From Promethearchaeota archaeon (GTDB lineage Archaea > Asgardarchaeota > Lokiarchaeia > Sigyniarchaeales > Promethearchaeaceae): a DNA stretch of 32,000 bases. Location of the stretch: the NCBI GenBank assembly GCA_016933055.1, contig JAFGBS010000001.1:120001-152000 (forward strand). The letters run 5' to 3'. Shown here piece after piece: positions 10,869 through 13,362 of the stretch. Every line of letters begins with the position of its first letter. The stretch's first letter is position 1. The notes under the pieces were generated by a model. That model searched no databases, was not told the DNA's origin, and was given only the letters and a program-made list of their open reading frames with translations. The position numbers and the translations under genes were made by a program.

Positions 10869-11648
10869 TTAACACTTTCGTTTTACATATTTTTTAGCGA
10901 AATTTTTTCGTAAATCATTAATAGCAGTTCCTGGCATTACATTTTTTGGACAAACACGATTACAAATAAAAAGTTTCTCACATGCAGGGACACCGTCATC
11001 GTTTAGGACTTGTTCTAGTATTTGTTTTTGGCGTTCTTCTGAAATTCGCGAATCTCGAATGAAACGATCAGCTTTCGCAAGTTGTGCTGGTCCGAGGTAA
11101 TGAGAATTTTTTGCATTAACTGGGCAGGCCCAACATAATCCGCAAAGTATGCAGTACACTAATCCTTCAATTGTATACATTTCTTTAGAAGATTGGACGG
11201 ATTCTGGTGCAGTGTCTTTATACTCTCGCGTAAAATATGGTTGTATTTTTTTATAAAATTTCCAAAAGTTATCCATATCTACTACTAAATCTTTCAATAC
11301 TGGCATATTTGGGAGGGGTTCTATTAAAATCTCGTTTTCCTCATCCCAATTTGCATGGTCTCCAAAATGAAATACTGGCAAATTTTCAGCCTTTTTCTTC
11401 TTTTTTATCTCCGCTACTTGACTTCTACATGCTAAATCTGGTACTTTGTCTATTGTTATTCCGCACGAACCGCAAATTGCACCTCTACATGCATAGCGGA
11501 ATGCAAAAGTCGGATCGAAATGGTCTTGAATATAAAACAACGCATCCAATATTGTCATTCCTTTACGAAGAGGGACCTCAAAACGTTCGTATCTAATATC
11601 TCCCTCCCCCTTATTTCGATATACCAAAAATTTCTGCATTTTTGCCAT
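10869..11648 (-). CDS. sdhB: Succinate dehydrogenase/fumarate reductase iron-sulfur subunit
   Basis: [2Fe-2S] CRGAICGSC...LAC; CILCGLCWACP; [3Fe-4S]-type CEKLFICNRVCP; IEPLPNMPVLKDLVVD. Confidence 0.95.
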   Translation of the reverse strand: MAKMQKFLVYRNKGEGDIRYERFEVPLRKGMTILDALFYIQDHFDPTFAFRYACRGAICGSCGITIDKVPDLACRSQVAEIKKKKKAENLPVFHFGDHANWDEENEILIEPLPNMPVLKDLVVDMDNFWKFYKKIQPYFTREYKDTAPESVQSSKEMYTIEGLVYCILCGLCWACPVNAKNSHYLGPAQLAKADRFIRDSRISEERQKQILEQVLNDDGVPACEKLFICNRVCPKNVMPGTAINDLRKNFAKKYVKRKC

Positions 11649-11649
11649 T

Positions 11650-13362
11650 TTAATATTGCCTCTCCTTTATTTCGAACATGCCTAATTTTACGGGCTTAGT
11701 TTTGATAATCATACCATCTTTACCTGGATAGATCATGGTATGGTTAAGATAATCTGTATCGTTTCTTGATGGGTAATCGGTTCTCCAATGTGCACCTCGA
11801 CTTTCCTTACGCCAAAGAGCAGCAGTAGCTGTTGCTTCAGCAATATCGAGCATATTCCTTAACTCCAATCCACGAATTAATCCAAAATTGTATTTTCTAT
11901 CATCTGTTGGTAGTTCTATTCTAGCAAACTCTTTTTGAAGTTCTTGAATTACCATTAAAGCGGTTTTCAACCCAGCTTCATTCCGGTATACTCCTAAGTA
12001 TTTATTCATAGTTTCTCCCATTTTTTCACGAATTTCCACGGCATTTTTTCCCGAGATGGAATTCCACCTCTTTAGGAGTTCTTCAATTTTTTCTATAGTT
12101 TTTTTTTCCGCTTTTTCTATACTATCAAGTGATGCGACAGGGCTTTTTTCTTTCATAAGAAGGGTACGACCGACGTATCGACCAAATACGGAAGTCTCTA
12201 AAAGAGAATTTCCTCCTAAACGATTTGCGCCGTGAACAGATAGACATGAACACTCCCCAATAGCATACAATCCAGGCAAATCGGTTTCTCCATATTCAGA
12301 ATCAAATTTTGTACCAATACCACCCATTGAGTAGTGTTGTCCAGGATGTACAGGAATTGGTTTTTCTATCGGGTCTATTCCCGCAAAGTATATACAAATT
12401 TCTCTAATTCCCGGGAGTTTTTTTTTGATCTTCTGATCATCAAGATGAGTCAAATCTAAATGCACATAAGCATTTTCAAATCCTCTTCCTTCCAAGATCT
12501 CTGTTGTAATTGAACGAGATACAATATCTCGAGGCGCCAACTCCATTGTATTAGGAGCATATTTTTCCATAAAACGTTCATGCTTATTGTTGTAGAGAAA
12601 GCCTCCCTCTCCCCTTGCCCCCTCAGAAATAAGTATATTAGTCCCATATAATGTAGTAGGATGTATTTGAACAAATTCCATATCTTGCATCGGTACTCCT
12701 AAACGGAATGCTGCACCATTTCCATCCCCGGTGTTAATAACAGCATTGGTGGATTGCTTGTACACACGACCAAATCCACCTGTGGCAAGTATGACATATG
12801 GGGTTCGAAACGAAACCAGTTCTCCCGATTTCATATCTAAGGCAATAAGACCACCAATTCGACCTTCTGCTTTAAAGAGGTCCACGAGAAAATATTCATT
12901 ATAAAATTTTACACCATTTCGAATACATTGCTCAAATAGTGTATGTAAAAGTGCATGTCCCGTCCGATCTCCAGCAAAACACGTACGTGGGTATCCAGCT
13001 CCACCAAAAGGTCGTTGTGCTATCAATCCCGAACTCAGACGTGAAAATGGTGCACCCATGGACTCTAACTCCAATACGATCTTGGGGGCTTCTTCGGTCA
13101 TAAACATAACAACATTCTGATCTGCCAGATAGTCACTACCTTTTACAGTGTCAAAAGCATGAGCTCTTGGTGTATCATCCTCACTACCAGGCAGGTTTCC
13201 CAGTGCGGCGTTTATTCCACCTTGTGCTGCACCGGAATGACTTCTCACTGGATGGACTTTGCTGATGACTGCTGCGTTCCATTCTTTGGATAGTTCTAAT
13301 CCCGTCCGTAACCCTGATAATCCCGCTCCGACAATAACTCCATCAAATTCTTCTACTCTCAT
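11650..13362 (-). CDS. sdhA: Succinate dehydrogenase/fumarate reductase flavoprotein subunit
   Basis: GAGLSG; covalent-FAD motif [10 protein letters not shown]; QIHPT; SEGARGEGG; [10 protein letters not shown]; HYSMGG; [11 protein letters not shown]; ESRGAH. Confidence 0.97.

Follow-up and report, generated by a model that had tools for sequence, protein, structure and literature searches.

The anchor-less SdhAB of this Promethearchaeota genome is real and is one more case of a known kind. Genes sdhA and sdhB are predicted to encode the canonical catalytic dimer of complex II, composed of a covalent-FAD SdhA and a three-cluster SdhB, and this dimer is shown here to be made without any membrane anchor of the SdhC/D type in this and many other Asgard lineages. 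Both genes belong to a tight minus-strand operon (korA-korB-sdhA-sdhB-fumC-FMN_dh-acnA) facing sucCD-aclBA-icd on the opposite strand, and korAB-sdhAB-fumC were shown to be co-transcribed inside this TCA/ATP-citrate-lyase supercluster. The window, i.e. the whole stretch of 32,000 nucleotides that was analysed, displayed the following features (coordinates are those of the window):

4872-5591: unassigned 239-aa multi-TM ORF, not conserved near sdhAB elsewhere
5602..8268, minus strand: acnA, aconitase, closing the minus-strand arm (domain matches)
8409..9503, minus strand: FMN_dh, member of the FMN-dependent alpha-hydroxy-acid dehydrogenase family (SNHGGR motif)
9481..10866, minus strand: fumC, class II fumarase (domain matches)
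10869..11648, minus strand: sdhB, iron-sulfur subunit, 259 aa, Fer2_3 and Fer4_8 only
11334..11414, minus strand: clade-specific insertion in the 2Fe-2S domain of SdhB, approximately residues 79-105 (alignments)
11650..13362, minus strand: sdhA, complex-II flavoprotein, 570 aa, FAD_binding_2 and Succ_DH_flav_C
13237..13239, minus strand: codon of SdhA His42, position counted from the alignment to 1NEK_A
13373..14224, minus strand: korB, beta subunit of a two-subunit 2-oxoacid:ferredoxin oxidoreductase (domain matches)
14225..15952, minus strand: korA, alpha (alpha-gamma fused) subunit of the 2-oxoacid:ferredoxin oxidoreductase (TIGR03710, 581 bits, over cut-off)
16110..22706, plus strand: divergent arm with sucC, sucD, aclB, aclA (ATP-citrate lyase) and icd (domain matches)
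30362-31168: Rce1-like CAAX protease, multi-TM ORF

The ORFs and domains of sdhA and sdhB agreed with those described in an earlier note on this DNA, and the gaps that it had given were re-measured: 10 nt separate the korB stop from the sdhA ATG, and 'ac' alone stands between the sdhB TAA and the fumC ATG at 10866, which leaves 2 nt. The spacing between sdhA and sdhB is 1 nt. An alternative fumC GTG at 10875, found in the ORF list, would overlap sdhB. The statement that no anchor gene occurs in the window was upheld; its multi-TM ORFs are the CAAX protease and the non-conserved 239-aa ORF.

SdhA matched TIGR01812 with 736 bits (cut-off 567), PF00890 with 359 bits and PF02910 with 130 bits, and its alignment to E. 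coli SdhA (1NEK_A) scored 498 bits. His42 (RSH42SGAAQ) aligned with the FAD-linked His45 of the E. coli protein, i.e. the covalent-FAD position. The catalytic His/Arg/His/Arg set was conserved and motifs IHPT, PRD, QHYSMGG and HGANRLG were all kept; Thr254 of E. coli SdhA was replaced by Ser in this SdhA. SdhB scored 205 bits with TIGR00384 (cut-off 88). Its 2Fe-2S site corresponds to Cys54/59/62/74 and its 4Fe-4S and 3Fe-4S sites to C166-x2-C169-x2-C172-x2-C175-P and C223-x5-C229-x3-C233-P; all 11 cluster cysteines were invariant in an alignment of 45 sequences. The protein ends ~25 residues after the third motif (C-x5-C-x3-C-P), and neither a CCG domain nor a C-terminal extension was detected by domain search and alignment. 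The earlier claim that SdhB lacks the CCG extension of TfrB thus held, only Fer2_3 and Fer4_8 being found in its 259 aa. The AlphaFold model of SdhB (pLDDT 79.5) displayed its best match with E. coli FrdB (1KF6_B, TM 0.79-0.83).

Classical complex II (types A-D; E. coli SdhCDAB 1NEK and FrdABCD 1KF6) shares with the Asgard enzyme the covalent-FAD His, the catalytic set, the cluster motifs and the SdhB fold. The window enzyme differs from it by the absence of SdhC/D and of a type-B cytochrome b at the locus, in the genome and in relatives, by the absence of menaquinone markers, by a first ferredoxin motif of SdhB in which the spacing ahead of the fourth Cys is one residue shorter, by the replacement of the ubiquinone-binding residues of type C SdhB (Trp of CPSYWWN and His of CHTIMNC), and by an insertion of ~25 residues in the 2Fe-2S domain. 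This insertion was conserved and specific to Asgard clades (alignment of 121 sequences), and was missing from the aligned type C SdhB of proteobacteria and type E SdhB of spirochaetes. It is dipolar, with a basic first half (mean net charge +3.1) and an acidic second half (-4.4), and was modelled with a pLDDT of ~79-95, without regular secondary structure.

A genome-wide HMM search for SdhC/D, which the earlier note had proposed, returned noise only. In the own genome, the best match to Sdh_cyt (PF01127) had an E-value of 0.09 and lay inside a frame with stop codons, and the best match to the type-B anchor (TIGR02046) had an E-value of 0.12; this search covered these two models. Because the genome is 91% complete, the absence of an anchor is strong, not absolute, and anchor-less status is to be taken as an observation on gene content rather than as a statistical signal. 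In 151 genomes of the order, TIGR02046 gave no significant match and one sub-cut-off match (E 5e-4). The quinone-biosynthesis search, likewise proposed before, consisted of two menaquinone markers in the same 91% complete genome and brought neither over its cut-off: MqnA was not found, and MenD reached at best 54 bits (cut-off 244). Two membrane ORFs located between fumC and sdhA at one locus of family f31 (L130) were discarded as anchors, having no Pfam match and not being conserved among the other loci of that family. In P0249 and P0250, the C-terminal tail is of low complexity and is not an anchor.

Window-type SdhB was present in 79 out of 400 Asgard genomes, 69 of which were devoid of any Sdh_cyt (PF01127) match. 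sdhAB was absent from all three surveyed genomes of this family that consist of a single contig. The ten genomes with a match all belonged to family f16, and in the one examined (G067) Sdh_cyt was part of a separate, classical sdhC-sdhD-sdhA-sdhB operon. The same operon was carried by G075, a genome without window-type SdhB. These classical sdhCDAB operons (L185, L186) serve as a positive control, since they indicate that the anchor search works within the phylum; they occupy the same place in TCA/ACL clusters as anchor-less sdhAB. Among 34 loci, the genes recurring beside sdhAB were fumC (27), korB (18), korA (17), FMN_dh (11), citrate synthase (8) and acnA (7), and no other conserved neighbour was found in these loci, be it a membrane protein or a CCG gene. 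In genus g58, sdhAB alone makes up an indel of ~3.3 kb, flanked by a UDG gene on one side and an AP_endonuc_2 gene on the other. The distribution shows that anchor-less sdhAB is a conserved, mobile two-gene module of many Asgard families and not an assembly artefact. G117 is an example of an independent gain. The window-type SdhA clade was well supported (SH-aLRT 99). SdhA phylogeny was set aside as a guide to the ancestral anchor type, as relations among the major clades were unresolved in our quick tree. No fused forms of SdhB were found among close relatives, and Rosetta-stone fusions were abandoned as a clue to the partner because only distant ones (31-39% identity) occurred.

'Incomplete' fumarate reductases composed of A and B only are found among the rTCA genes of bacteria such as Sulfurihydrogenibium and Nitrospirota, where they are a published open problem (PMC13147460). 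The Asgard enzyme resembles them in being limited to A and B, among rTCA genes (kor, acl, fum) and with no C/D elsewhere, and differs from them in being archaeal and in forming its own well-supported SdhA clade; the group is informal and defined by gene content, and membership is meant here in that sense, not by phylogeny or biochemistry. In Asgard archaea, missing sdhC and sdhD in the presence of rTCA markers were reported by Bulzu et al. (2018, bioRxiv 10.1101/385732; Nat Microbiol 2019). The gene set is the same, the closest locus (77% SdhA identity) coming from their AMARA_1 MAG. Their paper goes no further than noting that the anchors are absent; what is new is the description of the cluster motifs and of the insertion, the profile across the phylum, the sdhCDAB control from within it and the FMN_dh test.

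Like methanogen TfrAB, which is cytoplasmic, the enzyme would be an archaeal, anchor-less fumarate reductase. Methanogen TfrB is a ~490-aa fusion with two CCG domains, in contrast to the 259 aa of Asgard SdhB, which has no CCG and scored 139 bits with NF004898 (cut-off 385); SdhA also remained below the TfrA model (NF004900, 460 bits, cut-off 718). The nearest non-Asgard SdhA found (50% identity) was that of type E SQR/MFR (SdhABE(F), known from Sulfolobus and Campylobacter and represented here by Spirochaetia L027 and Leptospiraceae L028). Type E SdhB is characterised by a Cx2Cx2Cx3C third motif (4Fe-4S), a C-terminal extension of ~70 aa and an adjacent CCG subunit, all three of which the Asgard enzyme lacks. 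Spirochaete type E SdhB displayed the motif and the extension in the same alignment, and no SdhE-type CCG subunit gene adjoined sdhAB in the 34 loci. A spirochaete SdhE query retrieved four equidistant HdrB paralogues from the own genome, all 32-34% identical to type E SdhE, three of them adjoining Hdr or Mvh genes and none located beside sdhAB, so that an SdhE-like anchor was rejected.

The own genome also harbored a second, Hdr/Mvh-linked fumarate-reductase-like pair (C17:661767-673548, beside hdrABC/mvhADG). Its flavoprotein was 29% identical to SdhA over 409 residues, was devoid of Succ_DH_flav_C and is accompanied by a different Fe-S subunit. Hdr-linked FrdAB-like enzymes, as in this locus and in the rTCA cluster of a tubeworm symbiont, are likewise anchor-less and Kor-associated and have been proposed as a cytoplasmic fumarate sink. 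Such enzymes are non-covalent, their flavoprotein having no flavinylated His, and their operons include hdr genes; the window contained no hdr genes and its SdhA displayed His42. Being found in the own genome and in five of 151 genomes of the order (37-38% identity), the pair is too rare to be a general alternative to SdhAB or its general partner.

No anchor of the SdhC/D type or of type B turned up in the window, in the genome or among the relatives, nor did a CCG fusion. Non-quinol action in the cytoplasm, in line with the soluble donor supposed in the earlier note, is the most economical reading. As menaquinone markers are lacking and the relatives are anaerobic, SdhAB would most likely be a cytoplasmic fumarate reductase, acting in a reductive branch or as an rTCA step. 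sdhAB seems to be gained or lost as a bare two-gene unit without a conserved partner gene adjoining, which points most economically to a generic soluble low-potential iron-sulfur carrier as donor. This donor may be the ferredoxin pool also used by the adjacent two-subunit KorAB. A ferredoxin-type carrier would then feed electrons into the cluster chain of SdhB, which is the weakest step, and the dipolar insertion is, speculatively, a candidate docking element. The recurrence of kor beside sdh in 18 of the 34 loci is consistent with a ferredoxin link and proves nothing. Taken as a whole, this reading of an anchor-less cytoplasmic fumarate reductase fed by the ferredoxin pool shared with KorAB is the one proposed here, tentatively and with somewhat less than even confidence.

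Several points count against ferredoxin. Electron flow from ferredoxin (~-450 mV) to the fumarate couple (+30 mV) without energy conservation is wasteful, and the retained 3Fe-4S cluster and covalent FAD are traits of enzymes that work with quinones. The CCG proteins of the genome, four of them HdrB-like and several HdrD-like, are also possible unlinked partners. We know of no ferredoxin:fumarate reductase built on classical SdhAB. A ferredoxin gene beside sdhAB was discarded as a candidate, none being present in the window and a small Cx2Cx2Cx3C ORF occurring in only three of the 34 loci. A bolder form of the ferredoxin reading, in which ferredoxin or the [4Fe-4S] of KorAB passes electrons straight to the free cytoplasmic AB dimer, with the insertion acting in docking, would amount to a new functional class of complex II; we consider it rather unlikely.

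A larger soluble complex, with SdhAB as its catalytic module and its other subunits encoded elsewhere, is likewise doubtful. Such subunits could be an HdrB/HdrC-like (CCG) pair, alone or together with a GltD-like NAD(P)H flavoprotein, or an HdrA-type bifurcating module. A precedent is the soluble, five-subunit, NADH-dependent FrdABCDE of Hydrogenobacter thermophilus, the genes of which are scattered (Miura et al. 2008, cited after PMC13147460). It has complex-II-type FrdA and FrdB without a membrane anchor in an rTCA setting, as is the case here, and three extra subunits (FrdC, FrdD and FrdE) for NADH input. CCG and pyridine-nucleotide flavoproteins were present in the own genome, where ~11 CCG-domain proteins, including the four HdrB-like ones, occurred along with several HdrA/MvhD sets. 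Further support comes from metagenomic fusions of SdhB to molybdopterin, Rieske, CCG and cytochrome c modules, and from genomes G307 and G308, where sdhAB-fumC is followed by mvhD-fdhA-fdhB. However, candidate subunit genes were not conserved beside sdhAB in the 34 loci, no SdhE orthologue stood out among the HdrB paralogues, the g58 indel holds sdhAB only, and the Hdr-linked pair of the own genome is a different, rare enzyme. The mvhD-fdhA cluster of G307 and G308 was rejected as a general partner, being lineage-specific; it runs into a NuoC/NuoBD-like hydrogenase module.

Association of SdhAB with the membrane, by an unrecognised anchor family or by amphipathic contacts, and with a lipophilic carrier other than menaquinone, appears improbable. 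Anchors are the least conserved subunits of complex II and unknown families are invisible to HMM searches, which counts against the anchor-less reading; the classical 3Fe-4S motif and the FrdB/SdhB fold are also typical of quinone-linked enzymes. On the other hand, anchors are nearly always encoded beside sdhAB and no membrane protein was conserved there in the 34 loci; the Trp and His of the type C ubiquinone site are replaced, and neither menaquinone marker was found. A 7-TM ORF between sdhB and fumC in a sister genome (L020/L152) was examined as an anchor and rejected: it lies on the opposite strand and matches no Pfam family, and the own genome has a 70%-identical homologue that is unlinked, on contig C6.

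Operation in the oxidative direction, from succinate to fumarate in an oxidative TCA cycle with a soluble acceptor, is improbable too. SdhA is nearer to the 'forward' model TIGR01816 (657 bits) than to the QFR model TIGR01176 (498 bits), Gln47 follows the flavinylated His as in SdhA-like proteins (Gln rather than Glu), and citrate synthase also occurs in related clusters. Against this, oxidising succinate (+30 mV) takes an acceptor of high potential, and no such acceptor is evident in an organism without quinone markers or anchor. ATP-citrate lyase and a ferredoxin-dependent Kor also form the core of the cluster. The published reading of Lokiarchaeia is an rTCA cycle (bioRxiv 10.1101/385732).

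The earlier note had also considered the FMN hydroxy-acid dehydrogenase as a donor, by coupling oxidation of malate to fumarate reduction; another 2-hydroxy acid might take the place of malate. The likely real start of FMN_dh is Met12, giving ~353 aa with the catalytic SNHGGR motif. It shares the operon with sdhAB here and adjoins it in 11 of the 34 loci, electron transfer from malate to fumarate is thermodynamically downhill, and its four invariant cysteines (C34, C40, C48 and C129 in ORF numbering) could hold an Fe-S cluster contacting SdhB. However, FMN_dh was absent from 17 of the 79 genomes with window-type sdhAB, including G117, G307, G308, G235 and G067, which are 96-100% complete, whereas 34 genomes displayed FMN_dh without window-type sdhAB (profile search). 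fumC-FMN_dh is a conserved pair of its own, still tight in the TCA neighbourhoods of six inspected genomes without window-type sdhAB, and FMN_dh is mostly absent (8/89) from the second Asgard sdhAB clade, that of family f31. An obligate partnership was thus rejected in view of the phyletic and synteny patterns, the proposal did not stand as a general one, and direct donation by FMN_dh is very improbable. Conventional Mdh candidates were present, one of the Ldh_2 type 9 kb past the window end and one of the Ldh_1 type on contig C11.

Fumarate reduction without quinol is an acknowledged gap in rTCA reconstructions and in models of the metabolism of Asgard archaea, which are the closest relatives of eukaryotes known so far. 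Anchor-less sdhAB coexists within this phylum with classical sdhCDAB, which provides a clean comparative system, and the candidates for the donor have been narrowed: it is not SdhC/D, not an adjoining type E CCG anchor, and not FMN_dh as an obligate partner. If the donor is ferredoxin or Kor, this would represent a new wiring of complex II and would alter the redox balances assumed for Asgard archaea. In the bolder reading given above, korAB-sdhAB-fumC would form a 2-oxoglutarate/fumarate redox couple complete in itself or, alternatively, would carry those steps of an archaeal rTCA cycle that ferredoxin drives.

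The sdhA and sdhB genes were located on the minus strand of the window (G000:C16:120001-152000) in a tightly spaced run, and sucC, sucD, aclB, aclA and icd followed on the plus strand, divergent from korA.

Minus-strand genes around sdhAB (window positions)
14225-15952, minus strand, korA (ORF with domain and family profiles)
13373-14224, minus strand, korB (ORF with domain and family profiles)
11650-13362, minus strand, sdhA (ORF with domain and family profiles)
10869-11648, minus strand, sdhB (ORF with domain and family profiles)
9481-10866, minus strand, fumC (ATG at 10866)
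8409-9503, minus strand, gene of the FMN-dependent alpha-hydroxy-acid dehydrogenase family, FMN_dh (ORF with domain profile)
5602-8268, minus strand, acnA (ORF with domain and family profiles)

The close flanks described in the earlier note were recovered upon re-reading the sequence: the sdhA ATG followed the korB stop after 10 nt and the fumC ATG the sdhB TAA after 2 nt ('ac'), with a spacing of 1 nt between sdhA and sdhB. Its statement that the window holds no membrane anchor gene also stood, every other window ORF having been checked. These encoded AlaRS, an M29 peptidase, a DUF1801 protein, an aldehyde:ferredoxin oxidoreductase, a 698-aa Fe-S flavoprotein, a DAO flavoprotein, a Rce1-like CAAX protease, OTCase and two unassigned products. 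At 24882-30343 (plus strand), the aldehyde:ferredoxin oxidoreductase gene was followed by those of the 698-aa protein (2Fe-2S, pyridine-nucleotide-disulfide oxidoreductase, 2x4Fe-4S and BFD-like domains) and the 388-aa DAO flavoprotein, a layout similar to that of archaeal proline or opine dehydrogenase complexes; this set was not conserved beside sdhAB in other loci.

SdhAB was a canonical AB core. SdhA passed model TIGR01812 (736 bits) and could be aligned over its full length to E. coli SdhA (498 bits), an alignment in which the flavinylated His (RSH42SGAAQGG) and the four catalytic residues (His, Arg, His, Arg) were all kept and Gln occupied the SdhA/FrdA-discriminating position. Its nearest relatives came from Promethearchaeota (Asgard) MAGs (69-77 % identity, AMARA_1 MAG at the top); the SdhA tree was a quick one that did not resolve relations between clades. 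SdhB (259 aa) displayed only Fer2_3 and Fer4_8 domains and no CCG domain in the profile search, in agreement with the earlier claim that it lacks a CCG or TfrB-like extension, and both the TfrA and TfrB equivalog models of thiol:fumarate reductase were missed by a wide margin. Its four 2Fe-2S cysteines were followed by C166-x2-C-x2-C-x2-C175-P and C223-x5-C229-x3-C233-P, spacings that predict the classical 4Fe-4S plus 3Fe-4S arrangement, whereas type E enzymes display Cx2Cx2Cx3C as third motif. The AlphaFold model (pLDDT 79.5) superposed on E. coli FrdB and mitochondrial SdhB with a TM of about 0.8. In contrast to type C SdhB, it displayed an insertion of ~25 residues following the fourth Cys of the 2Fe-2S site, a spacing shorter by one residue before Cys175, and substitutions of the ubiquinone-site Trp and His. 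The insertion was kept in an alignment of 121 close homologues and modelled with confidence, its first half being basic (+3.1) and its second half acidic (-4.4).

Neither of two anchor families and neither of two menaquinone markers was found in the genome (3.76 Mb, 36 contigs, 91 % complete). The genome-wide HMM search for SdhC/D proposed in the earlier note, which covered Sdh_cyt (PF01127) and the type-B model (TIGR02046), returned noise only. Likewise, the proposed search for quinone biosynthesis genes, scoped to two menaquinone markers also used in a recent rTCA survey (PMC13147460), found MqnA absent and MenD far under cut-off. Among 400 Asgard genomes (MAGs of varying completeness, with kin not independent), 79 possessed window-type SdhB (at least 57 % identity), and 69 of these lacked an Sdh_cyt match; the other ten all belonged to family f16. 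Overall, Sdh_cyt exceeded the cut-off in 26 of the 400 genomes, restricted to families f12, f14, f16, f17, f24 and f32, and these lineages also carried a different SdhB, related to that of the window only at about E 1e-26 to 1e-30. In two f16 genomes (G067 and G075) Sdh_cyt lay within a classical sdhC-sdhD-sdhA-sdhB operon (f16 loci L185 4524-7940 and L186 4576-8031) between sucCD and aclBA-icd. The profile thus does detect Asgard anchors where present, and the same place in the TCA/ACL clusters of Asgard archaea is filled by two alternative enzymes. Both types coexisted in some genomes, e.g. G067. No type-B anchor (TIGR02046) was found in the 151 genomes of the order.

Across 34 Asgard loci, compared together with flanks of 8-10 kb, sdhA and sdhB were paired without exception. 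Recurring neighbours were fumC (27/34), korB (18/34), korA (17/34), FMN_dh (11/34), citrate synthase (8/34) and acnA (7/34), no further gene being found in more than five. In one Asgard MAG, a gelsolin repeat occurred in a 181-aa ORF placed between sdhB and fumC (L022 3289-3834). In G307 and G308 (L136 268-6536; L146 476-6807), sdhAB-fumC continued on its own strand into mvhD and genes for an FdhA-like molybdopterin enzyme and FrhB/FdhB-like, NuoC-like and fused Fer4-NuoB-NuoD-like proteins, a set of formate-hydrogenlyase-like appearance.

The pair also appeared to be mobile. Within genus g58, sdhAB was present in G117 (one contig, complete) and absent from four sister genomes (G119-G122); DNA comparison delimited an indel of ~3.3 kb (L135 5824-9152) between a UDG-family and an AP_endonuc_2 gene, containing only sdhA, sdhB and a 123-aa unassigned ORF. 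A second indel close by carried a 495-aa membrane ORF (7-TM, no Pfam match). In G067, a stand-alone sdhAB pair was flanked by a Cdc6/Orc gene on one side and a Na+/H+ antiporter gene on the other. A unit that travels on its own has to rely on components already present in the recipient, which favours a generic carrier, although a widely present partner is still compatible.

SdhAB would be pictured as cytoplasmic, running in the fumarate-reducing direction and accepting electrons from a generic soluble carrier. Ferredoxin is the most economical donor candidate, because external ferredoxin is required by the two-subunit Kor encoded immediately ahead of sdhA, kor and sdh genes recur side by side in each of the two Asgard sdhAB clades, and no dedicated gene travels with sdhAB. 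Since gene-context support is not evidence of electron transfer, the whole chain, from anchor-less core to ferredoxin, is put forward tentatively, at somewhat less than even chances.

The main rival, a dispersed partner set in the manner of Hydrogenobacter, seems rather unlikely, though the best placed of the alternatives. A spirochaete type E SdhE query retrieved four undifferentiated HdrB-like paralogues in the genome (32-34 % identity), of which three adjoined Hdr or Mvh genes and none sdhAB. A second fumarate-reductase-like pair (G000:C17:661767-673548; L019 7768-19001), in which a 568-aa flavoprotein lacking Succ_DH_flav_C is joined by a 244-aa Fer2/Fer4 protein, ended an operon with Kor and hdrA-mvhD-mvhG-mvhA-hycI-hdrC-hdrB. 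Its flavoprotein shared just 29 % identity with SdhA across 409 residues and, besides this genome, the pair occurred in only 5 of 151 genomes of the order (37-38 % identity); it is therefore neither a general partner nor a general alternative. SdhB fused to another domain was not encountered among close relatives. Distant metagenomic fusions illustrate a modular electron-entry side, as natural cases of alternative entry modules.

Distant metagenomic SdhB fusions
927-929 aa, SdhB-molybdopterin oxidoreductase (P0254/P0409)
411-460 aa, SdhB-Rieske (P0259/P0273/P0408)
462-496 aa, SdhB-cytochrome c/FixO module (P0410-P0413)
517 aa, SdhB-CCG (P0298)

An anchor of an unrecognised kind is improbable, no membrane protein being common to the 34 loci. 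An oxidative role of SdhAB is given similarly low weight; IDH, OGOR and ACL, indicative of rTCA, were reported in Lokiarchaeia by Bulzu et al. 2018 (bioRxiv 10.1101/385732).

Phyletic profile and synteny spoke against the donor role that the earlier note offered to FMN_dh, and coupling to SdhAB is very improbable. Among the 79 genomes encoding window-type SdhB, 62 possessed FMN_dh and 17 lacked it, the latter including G117, G307, G308 and G235 (100 % complete) as well as G067 and G150 (96 %); conversely, 34 further genomes, many 98-100 % complete, possessed FMN_dh without window-type SdhB. In six of these 34 (L172-L177) fumC and FMN_dh were still closely paired, surrounded by acl, icd, suc, gltA and acn genes, so that fumarase plus FMN_dh is the conserved unit. 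A function at the malate/oxaloacetate step is thereby suggested, rather than that of an obligate SdhAB donor. The C-terminal half was that of a normal alpha-hydroxy-acid oxidase (SNHGGR motif). The N-terminal half was divergent, and 12 orthologues displayed four invariant cysteines (C34, C40, C48 in G-I-C-G-V-Y-x-x-C-D-G-x3-R-x-C-Q, plus C129), which may form a metal or Fe-S centre; the protein may thus be an FMN/Fe-S enzyme of that step. Look-alikes were common in anaerobic bacteria. Conventional Mdh candidates were an Ldh_2-type gene of malate/sulfolactate dehydrogenase type 9 kb past the window end (G000:C16:160886-161914), likely the Mdh of the TCA supercluster, and an Ldh_1-type gene on contig C11.

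The anchor-less Asgard SdhAB is real, but the observation as such is not new. Absence of sdhC and sdhD from Asgard genomes other than Heimdall LC_3 was already known (Bulzu et al. 2018, bioRxiv 10.1101/385732), and a 2026 survey described 'incomplete' fumarate reductases, made up of A or AB subunits and encoded together with bacterial rTCA genes, and called for biochemical work (PMC13147460). The present analysis adds the assignment of the SdhB cluster type (predicted classical 3Fe-4S rather than type E or Tfr), the SdhB insertion particular to this clade, a profile across the phylum that includes its own positive control, the two-gene sdhAB indel and the evidence against FMN_dh as partner.
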